This document shows positions 2,012 through 64,000 of a stretch of 64,000 nucleotides of DNA, piece after piece. How positions within the stretch are numbered: position 1 is the first letter of the stretch; each line of letters opens with the position of its first letter. A model generated the notes under the pieces. The model searched no databases. It was given only the letters and a program-made list of their open reading frames with translations, and was not told where the DNA came from. Position numbers and translations under genes: made by a program. Source of the DNA: Candidatus Parcubacteria bacterium (GTDB lineage: Bacteria; Patescibacteriota; Minisyncoccia; Minisyncoccales; JAGMDC01); assembly GCA_023130975.1 (NCBI GenBank), contig JAGMAD010000006.1:23187-87186 (forward strand). The letters run 5' to 3'.

Positions 2012-2174
2012 TTTGCTTGCCCGCTACAATTTTTGTTCCGCAAAATTTGGGCGGGTAAATTAATTATTTTTTGGTTAGAAATCTACGTAACATTTCCAAC
2101 CAATTTCGACCTTTTTTCATTATACTAAATAAAATTACATAAATACAATTTCCTGCGGTGGATAACTCTTGCTG

Positions 2175-4073
2175 TTAAAAAGTTCCGGTGCAGATGAAAG
2201 TGAGACTGTCTGAATAGGAGCCTGCAGGCGTGGTGTTAGTAATTCCGGCTATGGGCTTTACGTCAACTGTTCCGCTATCAACCGCACCAGACGCGCTGGC
2301 AAAAGTTTGCGCCGAAGTAGTGAGCAGGGTAGTTCCATCTACAGCAAACCCAGCAGTAATAGTGAGAAGATAAGCGCTTGCTCCATAAACAGCGTAACCC
2401 TCGGTAGCGTTAGCCACAGAACTGGGTCCCACAGCGTCAATCAAATGGGTTGTTCCATATGATTTGTATAATCCGGCGCTAGTGCCGCTTCCTTGACTCC
2501 TTACTGTAATGACCAAGCCGCTGGTGGAGTTGGTTGACGCTCCAAGCTGAGTTGCCTGACCCGCGCCCGGATCTCCAGTGTCTCCTGTCTCAGCGCTGTT
2601 AGCCCACCGCTTGTTGGTGTCGGGCCAGGTCCCAAAACCAACAGCATTATTAGTAATGCTAAAACTTAAAGTAGGAGCGCTAGACGGTGTAAAAGGCGAG
2701 CCAGTAAAGATGACGCCGGCATCGTAGTTGCCGTTTGAATCTTTTTGAAAAACTTTATAAGAATAATCTTGGTCGTTGGTGAGCGCTACCGCGCTGCATC
2801 CGCCAGTCCCGGCTCCGTCAATACCGCTCACGCCAGCTGAAGCCGCGTCACCTGTGCGCATGCACGCAACTGTTGCTGTAGTAATGGTTTGATCCACGGT
2901 ATAATCTGTTCCTTCTGCTGGTACCTCGCTCCCAGGAGTTGCAGCGGCCCATCGCAAAACCACGGAACGGCTGAAATCAGAACTTGAGGAAGTTGTCCAG
3001 TTAAGAGTAACCTGCGTGTCTCCCTCGCTTCCGCTTGTGACTGTAGCTCCATTGGGCGATAAATTATCAATGGTGAGCGCGTTAGGATTAGTGTCACTGC
3101 CCAAATGAGTATATCCGCCTGTTCCTGTCCACGCAGTAACCGGCGCAGTGATGGCATACTCGGCTCCTGGCACTGCTGGCATCAAGCTATGAGTCTTTGG
3201 AGTAGCGCGGACCTTAAAAGTTGTTCCCTCTGTGCCCGCGGACATGCCTGAAACATTGATAACGTTTGAGTCGGCCGCAGGAGAAGTAGTGAACCCCAAT
3301 TCTGTATTGGCGCTGTCAGTGATATTTAATCTGCCGATGCCATTTGCGGTTGAAAGATTCACTGTTACATCAGTTATCGTCTCTGTGCCGCTACTTGTTG
3401 TTATAACAAACTGATCCACATCTGTCTCTACCCCCCCAGGAGCAATAGTAGCGGCTCCTGGATCAGTACCAGTGCTAAGAGTGGAAGTTAGAGAATAATC
3501 AACATAAAGATATGCCCGCCTAATATAAATCTCTGTTGTTGATGGGGAACCAGATTTATCATATTTAACTTTTAATTTTGCAGCTGTAATCTTTGCCCAA
3601 GTGTCTAATGTACCGCTTATATCAACATTTTCCCAATAATAGCTATCTGAAGAAGGATTGATGTCGCCAAGTTTTACACTCCACGCAGTACCATCATGGA
3701 TATAAACTTCCACAGAATCATTCCTTAATGTGTCAACTATTTTTAGCTCAAGATAAACTTTAACGCTATTTATAGCTCCACTAGCGGAAGGGTCAATAAA
3801 GGTGAATTCTTCGTGCCAATATTCATCGGTTTTTGTATAGATGTAGTTCGCAGTGTTGTTATCTAACCAGGGAGAACTCCCAAATTCTGTCCATTGTTCA
3901 TTAATAGAAGTAAATCCACTAACATAAAGTGTTTCATTACTCGTTTTTGCTTCCTGAATTTTTGGCGGAAAATCTAAAATTTGCGGCCAGCCGGAAAAAA
4001 CCCAGGCGGTAATTACAAAAAATATCATTATAAATTGTATTATTTTGTAAGTTCTTAAAACTTTAATCATCAT
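2175..4073 (-). CDS. large secreted surface protein (N-terminal beta-sandwich, FN3-like segment, WxL-like C-terminal domain)
   Basis: 632 aa with N-terminal TM. FN3-like VTLNWTTSSSSDF..YSYKVFQKDSNGN. C-terminus LSFSITNNAVGFGTW..RWAN..YSDSLTFICTGTF shared with 920..2011. Confidence 0.6.
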   Translation of the reverse strand: MMIKVLRTYKIIQFIMIFFVITAWVFSGWPQILDFPPKIQEAKTSNETLYVSGFTSINEQWTEFGSSPWLDNNTANYIYTKTDEYWHEEFTFIDPSASGAINSVKVYLELKIVDTLRNDSVEVYIHDGTAWSVKLGDINPSSDSYYWENVDISGTLDTWAKITAAKLKVKYDKSGSPSTTEIYIRRAYLYVDYSLTSTLSTGTDPGAATIAPGGVETDVDQFVITTSSGTETITDVTVNLSTANGIGRLNITDSANTELGFTTSPAADSNVINVSGMSAGTEGTTFKVRATPKTHSLMPAVPGAEYAITAPVTAWTGTGGYTHLGSDTNPNALTIDNLSPNGATVTSGSEGDTQVTLNWTTSSSSDFSRSVVLRWAAATPGSEVPAEGTDYTVDQTITTATVACMRTGDAASAGVSGIDGAGTGGCSAVALTNDQDYSYKVFQKDSNGNYDAGVIFTGSPFTPSSAPTLSFSITNNAVGFGTWPDTNKRWANSAETGDTGDPGAGQATQLGASTNSTSGLVITVRSQGSGTSAGLYKSYGTTHLIDAVGPSSVANATEGYAVYGASAYLLTITAGFAVDGTTLLTTSAQTFASASGAVDSGTVDVKPIAGITNTTPAGSYSDSLTFICTGTF

Positions 4074-4151
4074 TAAATAAACTCTTTAAGAAAATGTAAT
4101 TATTAATAATACCCGCTTTTGCAAACCCGATTCTTTTTAACTTTAAAGTTA

Positions 4152-4170
4152 TCAGAGAACTGTTCTCTGA
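4152..4170. repeat. REP-like perfect palindrome TCAGAGAAC-T-GTTCTCTGA, 2 nt after the RAYT stop
   Basis: Read directly; same core at 4869-4885 and degenerate at 4645-4662. Confidence 0.85.
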
Positions 4171-4172
4171 TT

Positions 4173-4859
4173 TTATTTGATCTCTTTTTTGTATTTTACC
4201 CAATTTTCAATAAATTTTCTACATCCTTCTTTCCCGCCCATTACTTCAAGCATAAAATCTCTTTCAGTTACTGAATGGAAATTCTTTTTTCCAATATAAT
4301 CAGGATAACTTGACCATTTATAATTTTCTAAAAATTCAATTACTTTTTCTGGATTTTTAATTCCTATTTCTTTCCATTTTGGTTCTATTAAAGATATGCC
4401 ATTGGTATGAATATAGACAAACACAGTTTTTAGTTGTTCATTAGTTTTGATGTGAACTGCCCGAAATCTTCCCTGAAAAAGATGACCCTTCCGATTATAT
4501 TTTTTATTGAAATAGGCAGCATAACCAGCGCCAAATTTTCTCATAAATTGGCTTATTCCTTCGTCTTTAAGTTGCTTCACTAATAAATGAATATGATTAG
4601 GCATAAAATAAAAAGCCCAAATCTCTACTAATAAATCTCGATTATCAGAGAACTGTTCTTTGTTTCTTTTCTTTATTTTAATACGCACTTTTCGTCGTTC
4701 CCTAATAGTAATTGGCGTTTCTATTGTATTAAATTCATAGAGAGAGAAAATTGCTCGATAATAATCATTCTCGTCCTTGAAAATTAAAGAATCTCCGACT
4801 CCTCGAATAACAATATGATAAATTTCACCATTAACTAATTGTGGTCGTTGAATAGGCAT
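4173..4859 (-). CDS. REP-associated tyrosine transposase (RAYT, IS200/Y1 HUH family)
   Basis: 228 aa with HUH motif in MPNHIHLLV and a downstream Tyr region FVYIHTNG. The N-terminus QLVNGEIYHIVIRG is typical of COG1943 proteins. Flanked on both sides by the same palindrome. Confidence 0.8.
   Translation of the reverse strand: MPIQRPQLVNGEIYHIVIRGVGDSLIFKDENDYYRAIFSLYEFNTIETPITIRERRKVRIKIKKRNKEQFSDNRDLLVEIWAFYFMPNHIHLLVKQLKDEGISQFMRKFGAGYAAYFNKKYNRKGHLFQGRFRAVHIKTNEQLKTVFVYIHTNGISLIEPKWKEIGIKNPEKVIEFLENYKWSSYPDYIGKKNFHSVTERDFMLEVMGGKEGCRKFIENWVKYKKEIK
4645..4662. repeat. degenerate third copy of the REP palindrome inside the RAYT CDS
   Basis: TCAGAGAACTGTTCTTTG, two differences from the flanking copies; encodes KEQFSD. 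Confidence 0.6.
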
Positions 4860-4868
4860 ACTAATTTA

Positions 4869-4885
4869 CAGAGAACTGTTCTCTG
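4869..4885. repeat. REP-like palindrome CAGAGAAC-T-GTTCTCTG, 9 nt upstream of the RAYT start
   Basis: Read directly. Confidence 0.85.
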
Positions 4886-4950
4886 ATAGTCTATTTATTG
4901 CTTCATTATAACAGACCTTGGTTTGATATATCAAATCTCTGATTTGCTAT

Positions 4951-5023: not shown

Positions 5024-5323
5024 CTATCGATTAAAATTTTCTCCAGAATTAGAAAACTTCTTAAAAGGTTTTTTCTCCATTGGCTTGGCTTCATCTACCA
5101 CTATATTTCTTCCATCTAACTCTTTTCCATTAAGCATTTCTATTGCTTTTTTGGCTTCCTCTTCTGAGGACATTTCCACAAAGCCAAATCCTTTTGACCT
5201 GCCAGAAAATTTATCCATAATGATAGTTGCTGAATCTACTGTGCCTGCCTCTGAAAATAAATCTTTAAGAGAATCTTCCTTGGTATCGTAAGAAAGACTT
5301 CCTACATAAAGTTTCTTTTCCAT
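5024..5323 (-). CDS. RRM-type RNA-binding protein
   Basis: 99 aa; RNP-2 LYVGSL and RNP-1 KGFGFVEM motifs. Confidence 0.9.
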   Translation of the reverse strand: MEKKLYVGSLSYDTKEDSLKDLFSEAGTVDSATIIMDKFSGRSKGFGFVEMSSEEEAKKAIEMLNGKELDGRNIVVDEAKPMEKKPFKKFSNSGENFNR

Positions 5324-5543
5324 TTTTTTTCTTCTTAAAAATTAACGAATAAACGACCTACTCCTAATATCCTTACTTAATTTTAAAAAAATTAGTACAA
5401 AACTTAGAGAGCACGACCGAAACACCGAGCACTCAGAGTACTGAGTGTCTAATGACCAGTTTTTTAAGTATATACCTATTGCTAAAATTTGTCAAATTTA
5501 ATCAGAGTTTTTCTCCTGCTAATTTCTATGTCTTTAACTTTCT

Positions 5544-7453: not shown

Positions 7454-7464
7454 AGAAAATTAAA

Positions 7465-8040
7465 CTACATTCCTAAATCAATAAAGTAATCTCCTTCTTT
7501 ATAATCTTTTGAATAAATCTTTAACTTTAAACCAGTAGAAATTTTTGCCACTTCATATATTTTTGTACACAGAGTCGGAGTAAATCCTGGTTTCAGTAAA
7601 GCACCACATCTACTATCATCTGAAATCCAATATTCTGCACCATCAAAAGAATAAAATTTTCTTCCCTCACTATCTACTATTTCCTGAATATCCCAACTTT
7701 TTCCTGGTATATTGTCTTTGCCTATATTTTCTGCAGTTATTGTTACTTCAATAAATTTTTCAGTCGTAGTGATATCTTTTCTTTGATGTTGATAGTCAAC
7801 AACTTCTGAGGCCTCAAGAATATTTCCTCTGTGTTCTACTTTTCCTATTTTAAATCTTACATCACCCACCACAACTTCATAAATAGGTTCTATTTTCTCT
7901 TCTTCTATTACTGGATTAGGTTTCCATAAAATTTTCAACATCACAACAGACAAAACTATAATCCCAATAATTATTCCGCCTAAAATTAAAAATTCTCTTG
8001 AAATTTGTCCTTTAGATTTTATTTTATCTTTTTTTTCCAT
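7465..8040 (-). CDS. membrane-anchored hypothetical protein (DUF4352-like ectodomain)
   Basis: 191 aa; one TM then a beta-rich domain (FIEVTITAENIGKDNI..WDIQEIVDSEGRKF). Confidence 0.5.
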   Translation of the reverse strand: MEKKDKIKSKGQISREFLILGGIIIGIIVLSVVMLKILWKPNPVIEEEKIEPIYEVVVGDVRFKIGKVEHRGNILEASEVVDYQHQRKDITTTEKFIEVTITAENIGKDNIPGKSWDIQEIVDSEGRKFYSFDGAEYWISDDSRCGALLKPGFTPTLCTKIYEVAKISTGLKLKIYSKDYKEGDYFIDLGM

Positions 8041-8067
8041 AATATTTAATTTATTCTCCGACCTTTA

Positions 8068-14957: not shown

Positions 14958-15293
14958 TTATAAGTCGAAATGAATTCTTAAATAATCTTTAACTTGCTCT
15001 GTTATATTTTTCTTTACAGCCCCAATTCGTTTAATAAAACGAGATTCATCAAAAGACTGAATATGATAAACCTTTAATATTGAATCACAAAACAATCTAT
15101 TCTGGCCATCTCTGGCCACTAAAATATCATCTCGAATTTTATTATTTGAATTTGAGGTAAGCGGAATTATCGTAAAAACAGAACTCTGTTTAATTTGAGA
15201 GTCGGTCTCAATAATTAAAGCCGGCCGCTCTTTTTTATATTCGTGGCCGACTGAATTCAAAAATTTGACTAGCCAAATCTCGCCTTGCTTCAT
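14958..15293 (-). CDS. MazF/PemK family endoribonuclease toxin
   Basis: 111 aa; GEIWLVKF..GHEYKKERPALII..IIPLTS pattern of PemK/MazF; 4-nt ATGA overlap with the upstream gene. Confidence 0.85.
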   Translation of the reverse strand: MKQGEIWLVKFLNSVGHEYKKERPALIIETDSQIKQSSVFTIIPLTSNSNNKIRDDILVARDGQNRLFCDSILKVYHIQSFDESRFIKRIGAVKKNITEQVKDYLRIHFDL

Positions 15294-16144
15294 AGGTTCT
15301 TATAATAATTATGTTCTTTATCCGGCATCTCGCCTAAACTTTTAAGCGTGTCTCCGGCCGCCGCATCTTGCCATACTTGTTCGTAATCACATTGAGCATA
15401 AGGCAATTTACGAAAAACCACTAAACCATAAGGAATAATTTCATTATCTTTAGTCGAGCTCCACGGTGCATCTCCATGAACATATTCTTCAATTTGCCTA
15501 GCACCCATATCTGACAAACGAGTAAGTACTTTATCAACTAACTCTTTCTCTTTTACTGAAAAATTATCCATTTTATAATCCTTTAGAGCTATATATCTTT
15601 TTTGAGTCATTCCGTAATAATCTTGATTAAAAACTTTTATTTCTTGATCATCCCTCATATCTTGAATAACTGGCTGATATTGTTTTAATTGTGGTATAGA
15701 TCCGAATTTCTGATGAATATAATTCATTCCCGTTACCGGCTTTCCTAAAGCCTCATAAGCATCGAAGTCAATAAAATATAAAAGCTTATATAAAACTGTC
15801 TCACCAAAATTCGGCTTACCACCGCACTTTGACAAAATATATAAAATAAGTTCACGCAACTTCTCAGATTCAAATTTTATACCCTTATTTGCGTTTACTA
15901 TATATTTACTCTTAGCGAGATCTTTAATTTCTACTCTTTTATTCTGAAGTAACTCGTCAGTGCTTAATTTGAACACCTTCGCCATCTTGGCCAATTCCAA
16001 AGCATTAAGGCTACGATTACCCCTTTCAATCTCTGACAATGCCGCACGTGAAATACCAATAAATTTTGCTAATTCTTCTTGACTTAGTTCTCGTTCATCA
16101 CGCAACTTTTTAATTTTTTGACCTAATTGTTTTTGTGTAAGCAT
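15290..16144 (-). CDS. antitoxin: XRE-type HTH fused to Panacea (DUF4065/SocA-like) domain
   Basis: 284 aa; N-terminus LSQEELAKFIGISRAALSEIERGNR (HTH_3); C-terminus GETVLYKLLYFIDFDAYEALGKPVTGMNYIHQKFGSIP typical of DUF4065. Confidence 0.8.
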   Translation of the reverse strand: MLTQKQLGQKIKKLRDERELSQEELAKFIGISRAALSEIERGNRSLNALELAKMAKVFKLSTDELLQNKRVEIKDLAKSKYIVNANKGIKFESEKLRELILYILSKCGGKPNFGETVLYKLLYFIDFDAYEALGKPVTGMNYIHQKFGSIPQLKQYQPVIQDMRDDQEIKVFNQDYYGMTQKRYIALKDYKMDNFSVKEKELVDKVLTRLSDMGARQIEEYVHGDAPWSSTKDNEIIPYGLVVFRKLPYAQCDYEQVWQDAAAGDTLKSLGEMPDKEHNYYKNL

Positions 16145-16178
16145 AATTTTATTGATTTAAGTTATCCACACTACCTTT

Positions 16179-18791: not shown

Positions 18792-19019
18792 TTATAATTT
18801 AAACTCTTTTTCTTTTGGAAAATGGAATTTAGATTTTGTTTCTTTGACCTTTTGATTAATGACATTAAAAATTTTATCTATATCCTCCCTATTGTAATTA
18901 TAAACACCCCTGTTGGCACAGTTTCCTAGGACTCTTAATCTTTTTAATATTTCGTTTGTCCTATAGCTTGCTAATCTTTTAAATCTTTCTCTTTTTTCGG
19001 TTAAATCTACTTGAGTCAT
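18792..19019 (-). CDS. small helical protein, first gene of the GHKL operon
   Basis: 75 aa; its stop lies 5 nt before the GHKL start; no family recognised. Confidence 0.5.
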   Translation of the reverse strand: MTQVDLTEKRERFKRLASYRTNEILKRLRVLGNCANRGVYNYNREDIDKIFNVINQKVKETKSKFHFPKEKEFKL

Positions 19020-19425
19020 ATTTTTTTGTTGAGTTAATGAATATTTTGTACGACCTTATGTAGGCAGTATAGCAAACCCGTCACATCTTGTCAAGAGTTT
19101 CTGCTATAATTGCTCTATTTTTGTAATATATCATACTATTCAAAATAAAGCAAGCATTTCAGCTATGAATAACACAAGGAAGCATAAGTTCTGTTGCGTG
19201 TAGAAAGACGAGCCGAGTATAACGCTTTTTTATCTTAATTTCAAGCCAAAATTAAAAAAACGGAACCGATGAAATTCCGCTTGTTTCAAATATAGTGTAG
19301 ATTTTGTCTTTGAGTGAAATTCAGGTATAATACACAAAGATGAAATTTACTCATATCTACCAAAAGTAGAATTACTTCCCGGAAGCTAAATCTGTTCTGT
19401 TATAAGGATAGGACTTTCAAGGTCA

Positions 19426-20631: not shown

Positions 20632-20760
20632 TTACTTGCGTATCTTCACTCGTTCCTTTTCGGTAGTTCTTGGTTTTTTTTCAGCCTGTTTTCTTAAAAT
20701 AAATTTACCAGTTATTGAACTTCTATATATTATCCTTGTTTTTATTTTACTTTTTCCCAT
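20632..20760 (-). CDS. 42-aa basic small protein
   Basis: MGKSKIKTRIIYRSSITGKFILRKQAEKKPRTTEKERVKIRK. Below the ORF-track cutoff. Has its own TATAAT plus AAAGGTCGG box upstream and a terminator downstream. Resembles a recurrent small-protein family (R-S-x-x-T-G-x-F-V ... T-T-x-x-E). Confidence 0.5.
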   Translation of the reverse strand: MGKSKIKTRIIYRSSITGKFILRKQAEKKPRTTEKERVKIRK

Positions 20761-20842
20761 AATTTAAAGAGTTTTTAGAGTCCGACCTTTCTATTATATT
20801 TTAACACATTAAAAAACTTAAGGGAACAACCTCGAGAAGTTG

Positions 20843-20913
20843 GCTCCGCCAACTGGACGCTGCTGCACCCCGTAGTTCCCGCCTTAACGGGATACTACTG
20901 GGGTTAGAACCTG
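20843..20913 (-). repeat. family-1 tRNA-like 3' element, long form with 38-nt hairpin insert
   Basis: Minus reading CAGGTTCTAA[CCCCAGTAGTATCCCGTTAAGGCGGGAACTACGGGGTG]CAGCAGCGTCCAGTTGGCGGAGC; starts 5 nt after the stop of 20918..21352. Confidence 0.7.
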
Positions 20914-23153: not shown

Positions 23154-23468
23154 TTAATATTCTAATTTTACTCCAAGTTTATCTGCTAAAGATTGGATCC
23201 ATTTTTCATGACGATTAAGTTGATTTGATACAGCTACATATTCTGTTTTTAAGTCACTAACCGCTTTAACAAGTTTATCCACTGAGTTTGTTAAGTTTTG
23301 AATAGATCCTCTAAGAGCAATAAGCTCTTGTTTTGTTTCCTTTCTCAATAAATCAAACTCTTCAAGGGTTACTAATTTTGAACTTAAATTATTTAAATCC
23401 TCTTTGGTGGTTGTGTTCTGAAACTTCTCATCCAAATATTCAATTAATTCTTTATAATCTTTGTCCAT
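23154..23468 (-). CDS. coiled-coil hypothetical protein
   Basis: 104 aa from ATG 23468 (track uses GTG 23471); heptad-rich; TTGACA-N16-TATAAT sits 7 nt upstream of the ATG. Confidence 0.55.
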   Translation of the reverse strand: MDKDYKELIEYLDEKFQNTTTKEDLNNLSSKLVTLEEFDLLRKETKQELIALRGSIQNLTNSVDKLVKAVSDLKTEYVAVSNQLNRHEKWIQSLADKLGVKLEY

Positions 23469-23508
23469 CACTTTAATTATAAAACCTCAAAAACTAATGT
23501 CAAATTCA

Positions 23509-23547: not shown

Positions 23548-23769
23548 CTAAAGTTCTTCTTTTTGAAACTTCTCTTCCTGGATTTGGTCTGACCTCCTGA
23601 TAATTTTTATTAATTCGGCAACATGTTCTTTTTCGTCATCTCTAATATGACCCAATATCTTTTTAACTTCTTTATTATCAGTTTCATCTATATGTTCCTG
23701 ATATTGATTAATAGCTTGTAGTTCTCCTATTAAATCTTCTCTTAAGTTTTTTAGAGTTTTATTGTCCAT
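23548..23769 (-). CDS. small ferritin-like (EncFtn-like) protein
   Basis: 73 aa; IGELQAINQYQEHI..ILGHIRDDEKEHVAELIKIIRR parallels the ExxA..Y....HNxNEExEH..xLxWIRR pattern of encapsulated-ferritin-type proteins. Confidence 0.5.
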   Translation of the reverse strand: MDNKTLKNLREDLIGELQAINQYQEHIDETDNKEVKKILGHIRDDEKEHVAELIKIIRRSDQIQEEKFQKEEL

Positions 23770-23842
23770 ATTTTTCTAATCTCTTTTATTTATAATATTT
23801 GACCTTTGTATTTTTATTCTACCAAAGAATCGCTTTTTCGCC

Positions 23843-23877
23843 AATCCGTCAGCTGGCGGAGCAGAGGGGATTTTTTT
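23843..23877 (+). terminator. plus-strand hairpin AATCC..GGATT plus T7 enclosing a family-1-like box
   Basis: AATCCGTCAGCTGGCGGAGCAGAGGGGATTTTTTT. Confidence 0.45.
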
Positions 23878-25302: not shown

Positions 25303-25527
25303 CTAAAAGAAAGCGTATAATACAGCCATTGCAAGCGTGATAAGTAGTGTTATGCCAATCCATGCTTTAGCGCCAGCCTCACGTATTCCGTATCCAACCC
25401 AAAGAAGTATTGGAATTAAATACAAAGGCACTACGTCAACTGGTTTGTGAACTACATTCTTAAAAAATATCACCAACAGCAATGGAAGAAAAAATGCAAC
25501 TATTAATATTTTTGTGTCATCTTTCAT
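25303..25527 (-). CDS. small 2-3 TM membrane protein
   Basis: 74 aa, hydrophobic; TATAAT plus AAAGGTCGGG box upstream. Confidence 0.55.
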   Translation of the reverse strand: MKDDTKILIVAFFLPLLLVIFFKNVVHKPVDVVPLYLIPILLWVGYGIREAGAKAWIGITLLITLAMAVLYAFF

Positions 25528-25586
25528 TTTTATTATCTTCTTTTTTAAATAGTTTAGACCCGACCTTTATCAAATTATACCAAATT

Positions 25587-25613: not shown

Positions 25614-25713
25614 TCCTTGCTCCGCCAACACTAACATCAAAATCTTTAAGCAATCCTCTATAAAGATTTTCACTCCCGCATTTTAGACATTTTTCGTTTG
25701 TTATATTTCTACT

Positions 25714-25893
25714 CTATTTTACAATATACTTCAATAAACTATAACAAATAAAAGTAATAACAGCCACCAACAATCCTGTAATTGTCCAATGTAATTCTGT
25801 CGTGGTTCCTATTAAAACTCCTAAAAATCCGCCGAGCCCCGCCGCAATTCCGACTATAATTGGTATTTTGTTCATTTTATTATCTTGCTCCAT
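25714..25893 (-). CDS. 59-aa membrane protein
   Basis: MEQDNKMNKIPIIVGIAAGLGGFLGVLIGTTTELHWTITGLLVAVITFICYSLLKYIVK; below track cutoff; followed by a terminator. Confidence 0.45.
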   Translation of the reverse strand: MEQDNKMNKIPIIVGIAAGLGGFLGVLIGTTTELHWTITGLLVAVITFICYSLLKYIVK

Positions 25894-25950
25894 ATTTATA
25901 CTTTAATTTTACCTCGACCTTTACTTCATTGTCAAATTCTTCATTAAATT

Positions 25951-27111: not shown

Positions 27112-27354
27112 CTAACCCTTATATTTTCTCGGATCTGCTCCGTAAGTATGTTCTGTCTGAATTTTGCCGGTTCTTCCGTGTATTTTTATCTGGCTTGGTT
27201 TTTGCTTTTTTGCAATTCCCCGGGCTTTTTTAATTGCTTTTTCTTTATTTTCAAACACAGCAATCGATTGTTTGTTTCCTTCTTTGGCTATCTTCCAGTC
27301 TTTTGCCCCTCCTTTTTTCTTTGGAGCAATATGAATTATTAGCCTCTTAGACAT
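27112..27354 (-). CDS. DUF2188 family small protein
   Basis: 80 aa; IHIAPKKKGGAKDWKI..FENKEKAIKKARGIAK..IKIHGRTGKIQTEHTYGADPRKYKG. Confidence 0.75.
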   Translation of the reverse strand: MSKRLIIHIAPKKKGGAKDWKIAKEGNKQSIAVFENKEKAIKKARGIAKKQKPSQIKIHGRTGKIQTEHTYGADPRKYKG

Positions 27355-27450
27355 AATAATTATTTCCTCTAATTAAAATTATTTTAGGTCGACCTTTATA
27401 AATTATCTTTATCAAAATATCTCAATTCATTAAACTGATATATCTTTAAT

Positions 27451-34848: not shown

Positions 34849-34892
34849 ATTTTTAATTATGATTTATTTTAAGACCTTTTTTTTATTCTATC

Positions 34893-35480: not shown

Positions 35481-35531
35481 TTATAATAAAAAGCAGAGAA
35501 AGGTCGATAACATCTAACTTTTTATTGTTTT

Positions 35532-36359: not shown

Positions 36360-36557
36360 TTATTTAGATTCTAGAGGAATAAGTATTAATAAGACTAAAT
36401 ATAAAATAATCCCAATACCATTGGCAAAAATTAGTAATACAAAAAATATTCTTACCAACAAAGGATCGATTCCTAAATGTTTAGCTAAACCGCCACAAAC
36501 TCCTGCAATCATTCTATTATCTCTTGAACGATAAACTTTTTTTATTGGTTCTTCCAT
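36360..36557 (-). CDS. PspC domain small membrane protein
   Basis: MEEPIKKVYRSRDNRMIAGVCGGLAKHLGIDPLLVRIFFVLL; ATG 36557 preferred over track TTG 36584. Confidence 0.75.
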   Translation of the reverse strand: MEEPIKKVYRSRDNRMIAGVCGGLAKHLGIDPLLVRIFFVLLIFANGIGIILYLVLLILIPLESK

Positions 36558-36640
36558 AATTTTAATTATTTTATTAATTATCAACCTTTATTCTATTTTA
36601 CCAAAAAACCGCCTCTTTGGCGAGACGGCTTCGCTGCTCT

Positions 36641-39144: not shown

Positions 39145-39158
39145 CTTTCGCTACTCTG

Positions 39159-39454
39159 CTCTGCGGGTAGGATTCGAACCTACAACCTAAGGCTTACATC
39201 TAATCCTAACATTTCTATTAGGGATGGACTATCTCATCCCCCTTTTTTTAATTAAAAAGAGGGGGCGAGGCGCTATAAGTCTCTGAACCTTCCGAGCATA
39301 TAAAGCGTCATGTACTCGGCTTGGCTGCGGATTACCATTGATTCGATAAATCGACCATTAGGCTTCCCGCAATTCACCTCGTTTTTCATTTAGTATCTCT
39401 ACTAAAAGCTGCAAAAATTTACAGGCCCTCGCGCTACCATTGCGCCACCGCAGA
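39159..39454 (-). tRNA. tRNA-Asn(GUU) interrupted by a group I intron; CCA not encoded
   Basis: The exons 39454-39421 and 39196-39159 join into a 72-nt cloverleaf. It has acceptor TCTGCGG/CCGCAGA, D-loop AATGGTA, anticodon loop CTGT|TAA, T-arm GTAGG-TTCGAAT-CCTAC and G73. Confidence 0.85.
39197..39420 (-). ncRNA. group I intron (IC3-like) in the anticodon loop, no internal ORF
   Basis: P1 is CUGU/GCAG with U.G at the 5' splice site. Core strings are GCGGGAAGCCUAA, AAUCCGCAGCCAAGCCGAG, CUCGGAAGGUUCAGAGACU and GAUAGUCC. A terminal G precedes the 3' exon. Confidence 0.8.
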
Positions 39455-49506: not shown

Positions 49507-50019
49507 TTACAATCCTTGTTTTGTGCCTTTGACCCTGGCAATTAACCTTTCTCTTAACTCTTCGGCTTTTTCTTTTTCAATGCCAGGCAGTCTTCCTTCT
49601 GCCCAAGCCCCCCATTTTCCTTGAGATCCGCCGAATCCAGCTGTCTGAAGCCGAAGCTCGCTTAAGCCCAAAATTCGGGCAATCACTCCCCGATGAATGT
49701 CAATATTCTGAATTCTTTCATAGGGAATAGAAGTATACTTTTTCCAAATTACTCCGCGTTCCACTTTAAATGTATCATCAGTAATTTCATAGAGCCAGAA
49801 ACGATAAGTCAGCTTTGCCCAGATATAACAAAAAATGAGATAAAGAATAAAAAGAATTATAGGAAGTAAAATCATCCAAGAGAAAAAATCTGCTCTTTCG
49901 ATTATTTTTGGTCCTGCTATCCCCCAAGACATCCACATCAAAAAAAGAAAGAAAAATAAACCGCTGAAGAAAAACTGAAAGAAAAATATCCAAACTACTT
50001 TAGAATTTAATTTTTCCAT
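49507..50019 (-). CDS. bacterial PH domain (YdbS/bPH_2) membrane protein
   Basis: 170 aa; 2 TM then YEITDDTFKVERGVIWKKYTSIPYERIQNIDI. Confidence 0.65.
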   Translation of the reverse strand: MEKLNSKVVWIFFFQFFFSGLFFFLFLMWMSWGIAGPKIIERADFFSWMILLPIILFILYLIFCYIWAKLTYRFWLYEITDDTFKVERGVIWKKYTSIPYERIQNIDIHRGVIARILGLSELRLQTAGFGGSQGKWGAWAEGRLPGIEKEKAEELRERLIARVKGTKQGL

Positions 50020-50100
50020 ATTATTGCTTAACTTTATTTTGAGGGAGGACGGGCCTCCTCCAATTTTTTCGACCTTTTAATTCAAGATTATGTATTAATA

Positions 50101-50145
50101 CATTAGCGAATCAAGGTTCTGCGAGCGTTAGCGAACAGGTTCTTA
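50101..50145 (-). repeat. family-2 element directly after the htpX stop
   Basis: Minus reading (TA)AGAACCTGTTCGCTAACGCTCGCAGAACCTTGATTCGCTAATG. Confidence 0.65.
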
Positions 50146-51042
50146 TACTTTCATTCCTCGAAGGGATTTGATACGTTGTTCAACGGGCGGATGCGTCATA
50201 AATAGTTTAGTGAACCAGCTTTTAGATTGTTTGCCCCTAAAAGGCGAAGATATAAAAAGATGAGCAGTGGAATTATTAGCTACTCTCATTGGATTTGGAT
50301 CAGCAGAAATTTTTTCCAGGGCCCGAGCCAAACCTTCTGGATAACGGGTTAATAAAGCGCCGGAGGCATCAGCTAAAAATTCTCTTTTCCTGGAAATTGA
50401 CAGCCGGATTAAAGAAGCAGCAATAGGAGCTAAAATAGCGGCAACAATTCCCAAAGCTAATAGAATTAATCCGCTTGAATCCCGGGCATCGCGCCTGCCC
50501 ATTCCGCTCCAGAAACTAATCCGCAAAAAAATATTGGAAAGCATTGCCACCACTCCCACCAAAACCACAATAACTGTCTGTAAAAGCATATCCTTATTGC
50601 CAATATGGGAAAGCTCGTGGGCAATGACTCCTTCTAATTCTGTCCTTTCTAATTTTTCTAAAAGGCCTCTGGTTACTGCCACCACAGCGTGATTGGCATC
50701 TCTGCCAGTAGCAAAAGCATTGGGTTGGGATTCGTTGATAATAAAAATTTTAGGCAAAGGAAGGCCAGCAGTGATACATAGGTTTTCTACCAGGCGATAA
50801 AGTTCTGGCTCATCTTTTTTCTCAATGGGTTTAGCCCGACTCATTCTTAAGACAATTTTATCTGAATACCAATAACTACTAAAACTCATTACAATACTTA
50901 AGGTTATAGCGATTATTAAAATAATACTGCTGTTAAGTAAAAAACTAAAAAGCCAGCCCAGAGCAATGATGAATATCAAAAAGCTCGTTATCAAAAGCCA
51001 TGTTTTGCGAGTATTACTTTCAGCATGTGTGTAAAGCGTCAT
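50143..51042 (-). CDS. htpX: zinc metalloprotease HtpX (M48)
   Basis: 299 aa; HELSHIGNKD zinc motif; 4 TM. Confidence 0.9.
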   Translation of the reverse strand: MTLYTHAESNTRKTWLLITSFLIFIIALGWLFSFLLNSSIILIIAITLSIVMSFSSYWYSDKIVLRMSRAKPIEKKDEPELYRLVENLCITAGLPLPKIFIINESQPNAFATGRDANHAVVAVTRGLLEKLERTELEGVIAHELSHIGNKDMLLQTVIVVLVGVVAMLSNIFLRISFWSGMGRRDARDSSGLILLALGIVAAILAPIAASLIRLSISRKREFLADASGALLTRYPEGLARALEKISADPNPMRVANNSTAHLFISSPFRGKQSKSWFTKLFMTHPPVEQRIKSLRGMKV

Positions 51043-51049: not shown

Positions 51050-51607
51050 TTAAAAATTCACTTTCACTGGTTCGCGGGCAGCTGGTTCTTCTACTTCAAA
51101 AAAATCCATCTTTTTAAAACCAAGGGGTTTAGCAATGAGATTTACTGGAAATACTTCAATCTTGATATTGAGATCCCTGACATTAGTATTATAAAACCTT
51201 CTGGATGCCTGGATTTTGTCTTCAGTATCACGGAGCTCTCTTTGTAATTCCAGAAAATTTTCTGAAGCGCGCAATTGAGGATAGTTCTCAGCCACAGCAA
51301 AAAGGGATTTTAAAGTATCAGACAGCATATTTTCTGCCTGTCCTTTTTCTTTAATGCCAGCAGCTCCCATTGCTCTGGTTCTGGCTTCAGTAACTTTTTC
51401 AAAAAGCTCTCGCTCATGAGTAGCATAGCCCTTGACTGTTTCTACCAAATTAGGAATCAGATTATATCTTCGCTTTAACTGAACGTCAATATCTGACCAG
51501 GCCTCTTTGGCTCGATTTTTTAAGGTAATCAAACGGTTGTAAGTTAAAATCAGCCAAAGAACAATTCCGACCGCGACTATTAAAATAAGTATTTGAAGAG
51601 TAGTCAT
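51050..51607 (-). CDS. lemA: LemA family protein
   Basis: 185 aa; N-terminal TM; YNRLITLKNRAKEAWSDIDVQLKRRYNLIPNLVETVKGY. Confidence 0.88.
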   Translation of the reverse strand: MTTLQILILIVAVGIVLWLILTYNRLITLKNRAKEAWSDIDVQLKRRYNLIPNLVETVKGYATHERELFEKVTEARTRAMGAAGIKEKGQAENMLSDTLKSLFAVAENYPQLRASENFLELQRELRDTEDKIQASRRFYNTNVRDLNIKIEVFPVNLIAKPLGFKKMDFFEVEEPAAREPVKVNF

Positions 51608-51613
51608 TGTATT

Positions 51614-51655
51614 AGATTTTAGATTTTAGATTTTAGATGTTAGATGTTGGATACT
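51614..51655. repeat. heptamer array (AGATTTT)x3 (AGATGTT)x2 GGATACT in the lemA 5' UTR region
   Basis: Read directly; shares the 16-mer TAGATGTTGGATACTA with 62961-63002. Confidence 0.8.
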
Positions 51656-51764
51656 AATCCCGACCTTTACATTTTAATTATATTAAAATTTAACCCTTTT
51701 GTCAAAAAAAATCGCCCTGCAGGTTATCTTAAAAAGATAACTTTACAGAGCATTGTAAAAATTG

Positions 51765-52312: not shown

Positions 52313-52340
52313 AGTGATAAATGATAAGTGATAAGTGATT
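52313..52340. repeat. heptamer array GTGATAA ATGATAA GTGATAA GTGATTA
   Basis: Read directly, between the groEL stop and its terminator. Confidence 0.75.
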
Positions 52341-52342: not shown

Positions 52343-54282
<1,940 letters not shown>

Positions 54283-54477
54283 AATTATAATAAATCCCAA
54301 ATCCTAATGACCAATGACCAACCAAATCTCAATTTCCTAAATCCCAAACATTTGGGCATTAGAGTTTAGGGCTTGGTTGGGCATTGGGATTTGGTCATTG
54401 GGGCTTTTAATTATTACTTCTCTATCTTAAACAAAACAAAATATTTGTCAAGAAGATAAATTTATGATAATCTAAGC

Positions 54478-57015: not shown

Positions 57016-59079
57016 ATGAGTCCTAAAAACTTCTCATTAGAAAATTTGAGGTCTAGCTTTAAATTTTCTAAGCAAAAATGGCCTTCGTTTGGCCAATGGA
57101 AGCAAATATTTAAAGTTCTTGATAAAAAAGAAAAAAAATGGTTTCTCGGTTTTTTTGTTTTATTTCTCTTTTCTGCTCTTTTTCTTTCTACCAACTTTTA
57201 TTTTAAACACACTGAAATCGTCCCTAAAAAAGGAGGAACCTATATTGAGGGAGTTGTTGGCCAACCCAGACACATCAATCCTATTTATGCCACTTCCAAT
57301 GATACAGACAGGGATTTAACAGAATTATTATTTTCTGGATTGATGAAATACAATAATAAAGGTGAGATTGTTCCAGACCTGGCTAAAAGCTACAAAACAG
57401 AAGACGAAGGCAGAACATACAGCTTTTATTTAAAAGAAGACATTCTTTGGTCAGACGGCCAAAAATTTTCTGTTGATGACATAGTTTTTACTATTAAAGT
57501 AATCCAGAACTCTGATTACGAAAGTGATCTTCGGACAAATTGGCTGGGAGTAGAAGTAGAAAAAATATCAGATGAGGCAGTTAAATTCAAATTAGAAAAA
57601 CCATACAGCGGTTTTTTAGAGCGTTTGACTTTGAAAATTCTGCCTTCTCATATCTGGCAGGATATTTCTCCTGAAAACTTTACCAAGACCTATTACAATC
57701 TTCAGCCAATAACTTGCGGTCTGTATAAGATAGAAAAAATAAATCAAGATAAAAAAACCGGTATTGTAGAATCCTTAATTTTAGAAAGAGATCCTCATTA
57801 TTTTAATAAAGAACCCTATATCTCTAAAATTATTTTTTATTTTTTTGAAAAAGAAGAAGAAGTCTTTAAAGCCGCCCAATCAGGAAAAATAAAAGGGTTT
57901 TCCTTGAACTCTTTTGATTACCCCCCACCACTTTTGGCTTGCCAAAAGTGGTGGGGGGCTGAACATAGATTTACTCTGCCAAGATATTTTGCTGTATTCT
58001 TCAATCCTGATAAATCAAAAATTTTAGATGATAAAAATATCAGACAGGCATTGAATTACGGAACTAACAAAAAAGAAATTATTGAAAAAGTGCTTTTAGG
58101 CAAAGGAGAAACAGTAAATTCCCCTATTTTGCCGGAAATCTTTAGCTATCAATTGCCTTCTGAAATTTACGAATATGATTTAGAAAAAGCAAAAGAAATT
58201 TTAGAGGAACAGGGATTTAAAGAAACAGAAAGAGGTCTAAGGGAAAAAACTGTTAAAAAAGAACTGGCTTTTACATTTAAAAGCCGGCTAACAACCGGCT
58301 CAAAAAACAAAGAAGTGGAAGAGCTTCAAAAATGCTTAGCCAATCCGCCAGGTGGCGGACCAGAAATTTACCCAGAAGGAGAAACAACCGGCTATTTCGG
58401 CTCAAAAACAAAAGAAGCAGTGATTAAATTCCAGGAAAAATACAAGGAAGATATTTTAGAGCCCTGGGGATATGAAAAAGGAACTGGGACAGTAGGAAAA
58501 ACCACCCGTGAAAAACTTAACGAACTTTGCTTTGGCGACCCTTACGAGACAATACAATTAAAATTTTCCTTAGTAACAGTTGAAGACCCTGTTCTTAAAA
58601 AAGTGGCTGAATTATTAAAAGAACAATGGCAAAAAATAGGAGCAAAAATTGAGGTCCAAACTTATTCCGTTTCAGAGCTTCAGTTTAATTTTATAAAACC
58701 AAGAGAATATGAGTCCTTATTATTCGGCGAGGTATTGGGAATTGTTCCTGACCCATATCCGTTTTGGCATTCCTTGCAAAAAATAGATCCAGGATTGAAT
58801 TTAGCTATATATGAAAACAAAAAAACAGATAAATTATTAGAAGAAGCCAGACAAACAGAAGATAGCAATTTAAGAAAAGAAAAACTACAAAAATTTCAAG
58901 ACCTTTTAATCCAAGATGCTCCCTGTGTTTTCTTATACAGCCCTAATTATATTTACTTCGTTTCTGATGAGATAAAAGGAATAAGCAAAGGAATAATTGC
59001 TGACCCTTCAAAAAGATTTAATGAAATTGAAGATTGGTATATAAGAACCTCTCGTCGCTTCGCTCCTCGAGAACCTTGA
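57016..59079 (+). CDS. ABC transporter substrate-binding protein family 5 (peptide/nickel type) with inserted PG-binding-like domain
   Basis: 687 aa. The N-terminal anchor, GGTYIEGVVGQPRHINP and LVPDLAKSY are typical of SBP_bac_5. The last 12 codons lie in a family-2 repeat. Confidence 0.78.
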   Translation: MSPKNFSLENLRSSFKFSKQKWPSFGQWKQIFKVLDKKEKKWFLGFFVLFLFSALFLSTNFYFKHTEIVPKKGGTYIEGVVGQPRHINPIYATSNDTDRDLTELLFSGLMKYNNKGEIVPDLAKSYKTEDEGRTYSFYLKEDILWSDGQKFSVDDIVFTIKVIQNSDYESDLRTNWLGVEVEKISDEAVKFKLEKPYSGFLERLTLKILPSHIWQDISPENFTKTYYNLQPITCGLYKIEKINQDKKTGIVESLILERDPHYFNKEPYISKIIFYFFEKEEEVFKAAQSGKIKGFSLNSFDYPPPLLACQKWWGAEHRFTLPRYFAVFFNPDKSKILDDKNIRQALNYGTNKKEIIEKVLLGKGETVNSPILPEIFSYQLPSEIYEYDLEKAKEILEEQGFKETERGLREKTVKKELAFTFKSRLTTGSKNKEVEELQKCLANPPGGGPEIYPEGETTGYFGSKTKEAVIKFQEKYKEDILEPWGYEKGTGTVGKTTREKLNELCFGDPYETIQLKFSLVTVEDPVLKKVAELLKEQWQKIGAKIEVQTYSVSELQFNFIKPREYESLLFGEVLGIVPDPYPFWHSLQKIDPGLNLAIYENKKTDKLLEEARQTEDSNLRKEKLQKFQDLLIQDAPCVFLYSPNYIYFVSDEIKGISKGIIADPSKRFNEIEDWYIRTSRRFAPREP

Positions 59080-59092
59080 TTACTTCGTAATT
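59043..59092 (+). repeat. family-2 element overlapping the 3' end of the SBP gene
   Basis: AAGAACCTCTCGTCGCTTCGCTCCTCGAGAACCTTGATTACTTCGTAATT. Confidence 0.7.
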
Positions 59093-59790: not shown

Positions 59791-59834
59791 AAGAACCTTT
59801 CACTTTGTTCAAGAACCTTGATTACTTCGTAATT
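59791..59834 (+). repeat. family-2 element downstream of tRNA-Leu
   Basis: AAGAACCTTTCACTTTGTTCAAGAACCTTGATTACTTCGTAATT. Confidence 0.7.
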
Positions 59835-59909
59835 AAATCCTAATTTGTAAAAATTAAGACATTAAAAATTATTTGAAAATTAGAAAATTAAAAATTAAAA
59901 ATTTTAAGC

Positions 59910-61598: not shown

Positions 61599-61607
61599 AA
61601 ATTAAAA

Positions 61608-61631
61608 GGGACTAAAGCCGGACTTTAGTCC
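61608..61631 (+). terminator. hairpin GGACTAAAG/CTTTAGTCC after rnj (no T-run)
   Basis: 9-bp perfect stem; abuts the next promoter. Confidence 0.4.
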
Positions 61632-61660
61632 TTGACCCACTTATTGTAAAATGATATGAT
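61632..61660 (+). promoter_or_regulatory. TTGACC-N17-TATGAT promoter of rpsF-ssb-rpsR
   Basis: Read directly, 10 nt upstream of the rpsF ATG region. Confidence 0.5.
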
Positions 61661-61669
61661 TGTTTTACT

Positions 61670-62654
<985 letters not shown>

Positions 62655-62698
62655 GTTAAAAGTTCAAAGTTAAAAGTTAAAGTTTTAAGTTAAAAGTT
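62655..62698. repeat. heptamer array GTTAAAA GTTCAAA GTTAAAA GTTAAA GTTTTAA GTTAAAA
   Basis: Read directly after the ssb stop; followed by a partly complementary AT-rich arm. Confidence 0.75.
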
Positions 62699-62764
62699 AT
62701 TGAAAAATTGCTTTTTCAATTTTTAACTTTTCACTTTTAATTTTTAACTTGAGCGTTAGCGAAC

Positions 62765-62962
62765 GTGGACTGTTACTTTTGTAGAAAAAATATAAAAGAA
62801 ATTGATTTTAAGGAGACAGAAGTACTCCGGAGATTTATTTCTGGCTTAGGCAAGATAAGACCTAGAAAAAAGACCGGATTATGTGCTTCTCACCAACGAA
62901 AACTAAGCCGGGCAGTTAAAAGAGCCCGTCATTTAGGATTACTCTCTGCTGTTGAAAAGTAG
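62765..62962 (+). CDS. rpsR: 30S ribosomal protein S18
   Basis: 65 aa; GTG start; CYFCRKNIKEIDFKETEVLRRFIS..GKIRPRKKTGLCASHQRKL. Confidence 0.88.
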   Translation: MDCYFCRKNIKEIDFKETEVLRRFISGLGKIRPRKKTGLCASHQRKLSRAVKRARHLGLLSAVEK

Positions 62963-63002
62963 ATATTAGATGTTGGATACTAGATGTTAGATATTAGATA
63001 TT
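62961..63002. repeat. heptamer array AGATATT AGATGTT GGATACT AGATGTT AGATATT AGATATT
   Basis: Read directly, starting within the rpsR stop codon. Confidence 0.8.
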
Positions 63003-63010
63003 AGTCAATT

Positions 63011-63042
63011 AAAAAAAATTGCGGCTCTGCCGCAATTTTTTG
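63011..63042 (+). terminator. rpsR operon terminator
   Basis: A8-TTGCGGC-tct-GCCGCAA-T6. Confidence 0.85.
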
Positions 63043-63064
63043 ATTAGGAAAGTTGAAACTTATT

Positions 63065-63202
63065 AAGAACCTGCTCACTTCGCTCGCAGAACCTTGATTC
63101 CTTCGGAATTAAGAACCTGCTCACTTCGCTCGCAGAACCTTGATTCCTTCGGAATTAAGAACCTGCTCACTTCGCTCGCAGAACCTTGATTCCTTCGGAA
63201 TT
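63065..63202 (+). repeat. three identical tandem 46-nt family-2 units
   Basis: AAGAACCTGCTCACTTCGCTCGCAGAACCTTGATTCCTTCGGAATT at 63065, 63111 and 63157. Confidence 0.95.
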
Positions 63203-63293
63203 AGTAAGCTAAAATTAGACTGACCGCCACAACAAAGGCCAAAACAATAACTATGGTTCCTGTTTTTGTAGAGATTTTTTTATTAAGAGACAT
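63201..63293 (-). CDS. 30-aa membrane peptide (tentative)
   Basis: MSLNKKISTKTGTIVIVLAFVVAVSLILAY; AAAAGGTCGGAG box upstream; the stop overlaps the last repeat unit. Confidence 0.3.
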   Translation of the reverse strand: MSLNKKISTKTGTIVIVLAFVVAVSLILAY

Positions 63294-63331
63294 AGAATAA
63301 TATTTTAATTAACATAATTACTCCGACCTTT

Positions 63332-64000
63332 TTATTGGTTTTTAATGATTGCTTTTTCTATTTTTTTAACTAGTTCTGGGTTTTCTTTTAAAAAAGTTCG
63401 AGCCGCCTCTAATCCTATTCCAAGCTTTGTCTCTTCAAAACTATAAGTGTTTCCTGATTTTTTAATAATCTCCTGCTTTAGGCCAGCATTTAATAAATCA
63501 GAAAATTTAGAAATTCCTTCAGCATAATAAATATCAAACTCCACTGTTTTAAAGGGAGCAGCTACTTTATTTTTAACTATTTTTGCTCTAATTCGAGAAC
63601 CGACAATTTCATCTTTTTGTTTTATCTGGGCAATTCTTTTTAGGTTTATTCTTACAGAAGAATAAAATTTCAAAGCCAAGCCGCCCGGCGTTGTTTCTGG
63701 GTTGCCCCAGCTGATGCCGATTTTCATTCTTGTTTGATTCAAAAAAATAACAACTGTTTTTGTTTTAGAAATAATTCCTGACAACTTTCGGAGAGCTTGC
63801 GACATCAGACGGGCTTGAAGACCAATTTGAAATTCTCCCACTTCGCCAGCAATTTCTGCTTTAGGAGTTAAAGCAGCAACTGAATCAATTACAATAACAT
63901 CAATATTGCCTGATCTAACTAATGTTTCTACAATTTGGAGCGCCTGCTCTCCGGAATCCGGTTGAGAGATTAAAAGGTTGTCAACATTTACTCCAATTTT
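63332..64000 (-). CDS. recA: recombinase RecA (N-terminus beyond window end)
   Basis: The frame is open to position 64000: ..[65 protein letters not shown]. Confidence 0.96.

Follow-up and report, generated by a model that had tools for sequence, protein, structure and literature searches.

A sense-oriented, promoter-proximal box upstream of surface and envelope genes in Parcubacteria

Recurrence of the box in the window

We analysed a stretch of 64,000 nucleotides from a Candidatus Parcubacteria bacterium (contig JAGMAD010000006.1, positions 23,187 to 87,186; the window from here on), in which the octamer AAAGGTCG, which we call the box, recurs ahead of a surface-protein operon, lemA and a series of small membrane-protein genes. 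The window has a G+C content of about 35%, and 14.7% of it lies outside open reading frames (ORFs). It encodes groES/groEL, dnaG, rpoD, bipA, RNase J, rpsF–ssb, recA and many small membrane proteins. Its GroEL (52343–53989, minus strand) shares 95% identity with the counterpart in a metagenome-assembled genome of Candidatus Nealsonbacteria and 68–76% with other GroEL sequences from Nealson-, Staskawicz- and Wildermuthbacteria. By exact matches of its proteins the window was assigned to a Candidatus Nealsonbacteria assembly, GCA_030629575.1 (contig DAOVOQ010000005.1), and was also found in several ENA metagenome assemblies.

The exact octamer is present in ten copies, while 1.67 (standard deviation 1.26) are expected from 100 dinucleotide-preserving shuffles of the window, none of which reached ten. 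All ten copies are intergenic and all ten are in sense with the next start codon; all but one are on the minus strand. An unbiased hexamer count gives AGGTCG in nine sense-oriented upstream regions of the window (0.75 expected) and AAGGTC in 12 (1.6 expected); these are the two most enriched upstream hexamers, ranking above TATAAT and TTGACA. One-mismatch variants of AAAGGTCG are mainly intragenic and behave as chance matches, so that the specific signal consists of the exact octamer and a few well-placed variants (at 19051, 23800, 36582, 34872, 5354 and perhaps 16171). The sequence-only reading that had pointed to the box listed 12 core sites and three variants and described each copy as oriented with its downstream gene. 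All of these sites carry the sequences given for them on the strands given, and the orientation is confirmed for every exact copy.

Except for one exact copy, the sites lie on the minus strand. The copy at 2107–2114 heads the surface-protein operon, of which the first gene is located at 920–2011 and which, as judged from locus L172, continues beyond the window start with four further large secreted proteins. The 95 nt leader of this operon contains two stable hairpins and 26 nt outside them. An IS200-like Y1 transposase gene (4173–4859, minus strand) lies between the surface operon and the gene for an RRM-type RNA-binding protein. The copy at 8059–8066 is directly 3′ of a 19 bp inverted repeat and 18 nt before the ATG of a gene for a 191-residue membrane protein (7465–8040). 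At 20783–20790 the box follows TATAAT by 2 nt and precedes by 22 nt the ATG of a 42-residue basic ORF (20632–20760). The copy at 25561–25568 is found 5 nt past the TATAAT of a TTGTCT-16-TATAAT promoter (25601–25574) and 33 nt before the ATG of a 74-residue membrane-protein gene (25303–25527), and that at 25915–25922 is 21 nt before the ATG of a 59-residue membrane-protein gene (25714–25893). A DUF2188 gene (27112–27354) starts 35 nt after the copy at 27390–27397. The sole plus-strand copy, at 35499–35506, lies 11 nt past a TATAAT, and the ATG of a gene for a 229-residue secreted or membrane protein (35532–36221) follows 25 nt later.

The remaining exact copies have longer leaders or an unusual upstream neighbour. 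The box at 50070–50077 is 50 nt before the ATG of a bPH_2 membrane-protein gene (49507–50019), with one stable hairpin in the leader; in the related locus L001 a boxed pilin (N_methyl) gene occupies the corresponding place. At 51661–51668 the box lies 53 nt before the ATG of lemA (51050–51607), which is followed by an M48 peptidase gene (50143–51042), and it is positioned 8 nt past the −10 element of a perfect TTGACA-17-TATAAT promoter (−35 at 51705–51700, −10 at 51682–51677). The copy at 63324–63331 is placed directly past the stop codon of recA, a gene identified here via locus L168, and is separated by 30 nt from the ATG of the small membrane-protein ORF that follows.

Two variants differ from AAAGGTCG at one position. 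The first, TAAGGTCG at 19051–19058, is 31 nt before the ATG of a gene for a 75-residue protein (18792–19019) and 7 nt past the −10 of a TTGACA-17-TATACT promoter (19094–19066). The second, AAAGGTCA at 23800–23807, is about 30 nt before the ATG of a 73-residue EncFtn/rubrerythrin-like gene (23548–23769) and 8 nt past the TAGAAT of a promoter-like site (23844–23816). The variant AAAGGTCT at 34872–34879 stands 23 nt before the ATG of a 61-residue membrane-protein ORF, AAAGGTTG at 36582–36589 stands 24 nt before that of a PspC-domain gene (36360–36557), and the weak variant GTAGGTCG at 5354–5361 precedes by 30 nt the ATG of the RRM-type protein gene (5024–5323). A possible further weak variant that was absent from the earlier list, AAAGGTAG at 16171–16178, is proposed with low confidence; it directly follows a TATACT hexamer and lies about 27 nt before the ATG of gene 15290–16144.

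A second short sequence, GGCGGAGC, is present in five copies (0.44 expected), at 491–498, 20843–20850, 23855–23862, 25619–25626 and 32708–32715. Those at 20843, 23855 and 25619 are part of G+C-rich, hairpin-like stretches just upstream of box-associated promoters.

Conservation, gene class and position

Relatives were sampled as 80 groEL loci from genomes and 80 lemA loci from metagenomes, the Parcubacteria part of which comprises 1.28 Mb. The control loci are from outside the candidate phyla radiation (CPR), mostly from Firmicutes, and genes in the relative loci were called with a crude gene caller. In the upstream regions of the Parcubacteria loci AAGGTCG occurs 49 times in sense and six times in antisense orientation. 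Seven of the 56 intergenic copies have no called sense gene downstream; in six of them the gene caller seems to have failed, by missing a small ORF or miscalling groES, and the seventh is truncated by the end of its contig. Per 100 upstream regions there are 22 boxes in the window, 5–7 in Paceibacteria-like loci and 0.9 in loci of the Magasanik-, Kuenen- and Berkelbacteria type. The figure is also 0.9 in the controls, where the matches show no bias in orientation or position.

The aligned instances have A-A-A-G-G-T-C-G/A in common and nothing else, the flanks containing less than 0.3 bits upstream and at most 0.13 bits at any position up to 30 nt downstream. As its flanks are without information, the box is not a repeat unit, and an interspersed repeat resembling repetitive extragenic palindromes or miniature inverted-repeat transposable elements was rejected because the copies are unrelated beyond the core. 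A second GGTC at 9–12 nt is seen in only two of 72 instances, inverted copies are rare and no dyad is present. Upstream of lemA in five loci (L085, L086, L094, L096 and L098) we find AAAGGTGC, AAAGGTAC or AAAAGTCG in place of AAAGGTCG, and these are possibly lineage-specific variants of the box.

The genes that carry the box in the window are those of the surface-protein operon, lemA–M48, bPH_2, DUF2188, EncFtn-like, PspC and RRM proteins and several small membrane proteins. Across all loci they include LemA (24), pilin-type N_methyl proteins (10), Cpn10 (8) and bPH_2 (3), with the LemA and Cpn10 counts inflated by the choice of groEL and lemA loci. In the same genome rpsF–ssb, rpoBC, recA, ftsK, dnaG–rpoD, the RNase J gene and bipA are without a box, and at most one of 92 tRNA genes has one upstream. 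Because housekeeping and tRNA units lack it, the box marks a gene class and not every strong promoter. It is found only at the head of some transcription units.

A particular placement is seen at groES. The controlling inverted repeat of chaperone expression (CIRCE), with consensus TTAGCACTC-N9-GAGTGCTAA, is the operator of HrcA. In at least ten Parcubacteria loci (L002, L003, L007, L010, L013, L018, L103, L112, L100 and L129) the box is exactly the 9 nt spacer of the groES CIRCE, for example TTAGCACTC-AAAGGTCGT-GTTTGCTAA, and partial matches occupy the spacer in L017 and L047. None of about 50 CIRCEs from non-CPR genomes, mostly Firmicutes, has a box in its spacer. The arms of the Parcubacteria CIRCEs have drifted while the box in the spacer is kept. 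In contrast to these embedded copies, the stand-alone boxes are without CIRCE arms and their flanks are uninformative; the box is an extra signal embedded in CIRCE and does not belong to the inverted repeat. If CIRCE folds as an RNA hairpin, its spacer would be the loop. The groES leader of the window itself (54301–54460, minus strand) has neither CIRCE nor box and contains a long inverted repeat, ccaatgaccaaatcccaat ... attgggatttggtcattgg-like, unlike the relatives at 70–76% GroEL identity, which have CIRCE with the box in its spacer. No CIRCE with four or fewer arm mismatches was found anywhere in the window.

The position of the box relative to the promoter was assessed with two-hexamer promoter predictions, in which the −10 element ends 4–20 nt before the box in 23 of 27 cases and according to which its position is about +1 to +13. 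For several promoters with the highest scores it starts 5–8 nt past the −10, i.e. at about +1, so that the GGTCG core would be transcribed. For 29 of 38 boxes more than 40 nt of intergenic DNA upstream leaves room for a promoter. Hexamers resembling a −10 are found about as often directly 3′ of the box as directly 5′ of it; in AT-rich DNA such single hexamers prove little, and adjacency to a lone −10 hexamer was dropped as evidence. The earlier description of a −10 hexamer 2–15 nt before the box is correct for most sites, although single hexamers are weak evidence and the box at 25915 is located inside the spacer of the best-scoring promoter, TTGACA-18-TAAAAT (25935–25906; 11 of 12 positions matching).

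Between the end of the box and the ATG there are 18–95 nt in the window, with 18–35 nt at 11 of the 15 sites. Across loci the distance peaks sharply at 25–34 nt (32 of 69 instances), and the shortest among well-supported sites is 16–18 nt. The distances have no 3 nt periodicity and no start codon is present in or beside the box, and an in-frame N-terminal extension or upstream ORF beginning there was rejected. The leader after the box is 77% A+T and has no conserved position. Most leaders longer than 40 nt hold one stable hairpin, and removing the hairpin leaves 26–38 nt in six to eight of the 11 leaders that contain one. The lemA promoter allows the anchoring of the box to be followed in close relatives. 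In the window, L001 (91% LemA identity) and L081 (94%) the blocks TTTTTTTTGACAAAA, TATAAT and AAGGTCGGG are conserved, the 7–8 nt between −10 and box differ in sequence, and the leader after the box has 53, 28 and 146 nt, respectively.

The window genes as a whole have no Shine–Dalgarno (SD) signal. SD-like tetramers at −20 to −4 precede 11.1% of the window genes, the same as in the control interval, whereas in the mostly Firmicutes control loci they reach 52% over a background of 10.6%. In many window genes a TATAAT-like hexamer lies 6–10 nt from the ATG, as in promoters of the leaderless type; they include rpsF (of rpsF–ssb, 61670), 23154–23471, 34271, 36794 and 39486. Parcubacteria are often, in about half of the cases, without an anti-SD sequence (PMC9297842, PMC10783764), which is present in only 48% of them according to one survey (PMC9297842). 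The tip of 16S rRNA helix 26 is unusually conserved in Parcubacteria for a reason that is not known (PMC9297842), and a published supplementary table records altered 16S 3′ tails in Campbell-, Wolfe- and Yanofskybacteria (PMC10783764).

The box is thus a real, lineage-wide, single-copy motif that is always in sense, is anchored to promoters, keeps a preferred distance to the ATG and belongs to one class of genes. A tag in the leader or near the promoter is a familiar kind of element; the sequence, the lineage, the embedding in CIRCE and the occurrence in a group lacking SD signals are new. Literature searches for the sequence and for work on promoters, leaders or CIRCE in Patescibacteria found no description of it. 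In Rfam 15 none of the box leaders gave a match at the gathering score, and at E-values of up to 5 two box-rich stretches gave chance-level matches only, in line with the initial impression that no described element has this sequence.

Possible modes of action

We tentatively favour the reading that the box is a promoter-proximal 5′-leader element that acts in RNA via a conserved trans-acting partner, and we consider the chance of this to be slightly less than even. In a defined set of units (pilins, lemA–M48, PspC, bPH_2, small membrane proteins and the surface-protein operon, with groES added in relatives) the predicted transcription start would coincide with the box or precede it by no more than about 15 nt. 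The box would be transcribed as the first G+C-containing island of an A/U-rich leader without SD, and in the RNA it would dock a single partner, which could be the small subunit of the ribosome or a protein that binds RNA. The bound partner would stabilise the 5′ end, help the ribosome to start about 30 nt downstream, or both. Transcription of the box, its action at the RNA level, the nature of the partner and the direction of the effect are all inferred.

Several features lead to this proposal. Action in RNA would explain the strict sense orientation. Together with the lack of a dyad or repeat, this orientation argues against a simple steric operator and for a signal that is read in the transcript or on the non-template strand. 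The box is also a single asymmetric copy at a variable distance from the −10, which likewise argues against a repressor site of this type and against a contact of RNA polymerase. That it occupies the CIRCE spacer and is missing from tRNA units agrees with this, and taken together these features favour an element read in the transcript. The sequence-only reading had suggested either the first transcribed nucleotides or a promoter-proximal operator; the position agrees with the comparative data, while the simple steric form of the operator is disfavoured by the orientation.

The nearest precedent is provided by STAB-SD (a stabilising SD sequence) and other 5′ stabilisers of Firmicutes mRNAs, such as that of cryIIIA. 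STAB-SD and the box are both short, in sense only and far from the start codon, the box is predicted to lie near the transcript 5′ end as STAB-SD does, and both are found in bacteria that have the 5′-to-3′ exonuclease RNase J. The RNase J gene encoded in the window is counted in favour of a 5′ stabiliser. By analogy the action would also be similar, with a bound partner protecting the 5′ end. On the other hand, STAB-SD is an SD sequence, GAAAGGAGG, that pairs with the 16S 3′ tail and with which the box shares only AAAGG, and the genome that carries the box shows no SD signal, its relatives often lacking the anti-SD. The eukaryotic 5′ terminal oligopyrimidine (TOP) motif is comparable as a start-adjacent tag of one class of mRNAs that is read by a trans-acting protein; domain of life, sequence and gene class are different, and the analogy is one of logic only. 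Like an SD sequence, the box is purine-rich, in sense only and located upstream of start codons at a preferred distance. It differs from SD in that this distance is 25–34 nt instead of 5–10 nt, in that it is present in only about 22 of 100 upstream regions in the window and 5–7 of 100 in relatives and is missing before internal genes, and in that it follows the promoter and not the ATG when the leader length changes. With a canonical 16S tail only AAAGG would pair.

A more specific form of the proposal is that AAAGGUCG, about 30 nt before the AUG, pairs with a complement CGACCUUU in 16S rRNA, or binds a platform protein, and so replaces the lost SD/anti-SD interaction. The helix 26 tip or a longer 3′ tail would be candidate contacts in the rRNA. 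With either kind of contact, rRNA or protein, leadered mRNAs that encode abundant surface proteins would recruit the small subunit at their 5′ ends. We regard this version as a long shot. The 16S and 23S genes of a Clostridia rRNA operon in L071, which is not a Parcubacteria rRNA, contain no good complement of the box, and the seven matches that viral contigs gave to a 16S 3′ motif were irrelevant. An antisense small RNA was also considered as partner and rejected, as no intergenic antisense copy of the box is left once gene-calling failures are set aside. Avoidance of the box within genes is uninformative: AAAGGTC is found 47 times on the sense strand where 82 are expected, which is only the sixth percentile of heptamers, and AAAGGTG and AAAGGTA are depleted to the same extent.

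A number of observations weigh against a leader element that is read in RNA. At lemA in close relatives the leader has 28, 53 or 146 nt, with the distance between −10 and box maintained, which means that a fixed distance to the AUG is not essential. As internal operon genes have no box, it cannot be a general initiation signal. The site at 25915 falls within a promoter spacer, and −10-like hexamers only 2 nt from the box at 20783 and 0–2 nt from it in a few related loci suggest that at these sites it may be only partly transcribed. Transcription starts at the box are predicted from promoter hexamers. The predicted accessibility of the box is no higher than with shuffled flanks (0.53 versus 0.58 unpaired); its partners in minimum-free-energy structures are mostly the first codons, probably because only these contain G and C. 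Finally, no RNA complementary to the box was found in any of the sequences analysed; the 2.1 Mb of fetched loci are without any Parcubacteria rRNA.

The box might instead be the DNA operator of a regulator that binds over the transcription start and controls a regulon of cell-envelope, pilus and chaperone genes. This is unlikely, yet it retains a realistic chance. The genes concerned do look like a regulon (the pilins, LemA, Cpn10 and bPH_2 counted above, PspC, small membrane proteins and the surface operon), the box is kept before the same gene families across lineages, its anchor in close relatives is the −10 and not the ATG, and it overlaps the predicted +1. Against this, the box is a single non-palindromic octamer with few second or inverted copies, a steric repressor has no need of an orientation that is essentially always sense, anything from 0 to 20 nt separates it from the −10, and at groES the box is located inside the spacer of CIRCE, which is itself the operator of HrcA. 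A known operator of similar sequence is that of the Firmicutes regulator CtsR, which consists of tandem A/GGTCAAA heptads. Both share a GGTC(A/G)A core and a link to stress or chaperone genes, but the tandem heptad with its 3 nt spacer is not matched by the box, and a CtsR-like or dyad operator was rejected for want of a second half-site.

Alternatively, the box could be read as single-stranded DNA, on the non-template strand of the early transcription bubble, by a factor associated with RNA polymerase. Such a factor would resemble RfaH, a paralogue of the NusG type that recognises the operon polarity suppressor (ops) element with consensus GGCGGTAGCGTG, and its role would be to alter elongation and, on mRNAs without SD, to couple the first ribosome. 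Both ops and the box are single, asymmetric, orientation-dependent leader elements of surface-structure genes without SD, a gene class that is typical of RfaH, and the promoter-proximal position and variable spacing of the box would fit this mechanism. The likeness does not extend to the sequence, which on direct reading is unrelated to ops, or to the position, since +1 to +10 is earlier than known ops positions, and most box targets are short single genes. We judge an ops-like signal to be rather improbable.

It is very unlikely, in our view, that the box is an intrinsic promoter feature, a favoured start site or initial transcribed sequence of the housekeeping RNA polymerase that has no trans-acting partner. 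Its start at about +1 of several best-scoring promoters and its opening A-A-A, which is a good initiating context, would fit, as would the finding that pilins and secreted proteins are among the most expressed Paceibacteria genes in metatranscriptomes (PMC10936435). Against this, the promoters of tRNA genes, rpsF–ssb, rpoBC and other housekeeping genes have no box, and polymerase contacts would need a fixed register, while the spacing to the −10 varies and reaches 15 nt in the CIRCE promoters.

An alternative sigma factor that uses the box as its −35- or −10-type element is close to refuted. Leaderless-type promoters are common in this genome, and 25–34 nt to the ATG would accommodate a spacer, a −10 and about 7 nt, so that the transcripts would be leaderless. 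However, no partner hexamer at a fixed distance is seen in the uninformative flanks, −10-like hexamers do not peak at any single offset, one is found 15–19 nt past the box in only four of 50 cases, distances of 18–24 nt are too short to hold such a promoter, the groES and lemA promoters show clear hexamers of the sigma-70 type ahead of the box, and no AAC-type −35 of extracytoplasmic function sigma factors is present; both the −35 and the −10 version were rejected. The counts already refute an origin of the recurrence in chance, in base composition or in the copying of a single repeat family: the window is AT-rich and does contain other intergenic repeat families, but no shuffle reaches the observed number, the copies are all intergenic and in sense, and the box is kept at orthologous places in distant relatives while it stays at background level in the controls.

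Other features of the window and significance

The tRNA-Asn(GTT) gene (39158–39454, minus strand) is interrupted in its anticodon loop by a group I intron (Rfam RF00028, 84 bits, 39205–39430). ARAGORN, with introns allowed, reports tRNA-Asn with a 224 nt intron at position 35, and the tRNA-Asn genes of related Parcubacteria loci are uninterrupted. A 46 nt unit, ATTAAGAACCTGCTCACTTCGCTCGCAGAACCTTGATTCCTTCGGA, is repeated at 63062–63203 in 3.1 tandem copies of 100% identity, and its copy number differs between assemblies of this genome. Single related copies with the core GAACCTTGATT are intergenic, at 50109–50119 (minus strand), 59071–59081 and 59813–59823 (both plus strand). With one mismatch allowed, this core has ten matches (2.15 expected), six of them exact, and L082 has two copies of the element ahead of lemA.

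Heptanucleotide tandem repeats (TTAGATT, AGTGATA, TAAAAAT, AAGTTAA and TAGATAT, with 4–8 copies each) occupy leaders and other intergenic DNA at 51612–51645, 52313–52339, 59848–59903, 62653–62699 and 62960–63004. Leaders such as atttctaatttctaa upstream of lemA in L123, L125, L133 and L138 resemble them. Within gene 32897–34267, which encodes a cysteine-rich protein of 456 residues with a weak defensin-like Pfam match, a 138 nt unit is present in 1.9 copies of 100% identity (32901–33156).

The Paceibacteria (Parcubacteria) are a very large and almost wholly uncultured group, many members of which are known to lack the anti-SD, and our literature searches turned up no report of a promoter, leader or regulon signal in this group. 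The box is a short, searchable tag of pilin, surface and envelope-stress genes and as such a first handle on gene regulation in these episymbionts. It could be used to predict which hypothetical small proteins take part in the programme of the cell surface and host contact, and it is a testable candidate for how leadered mRNAs are expressed without an SD sequence.

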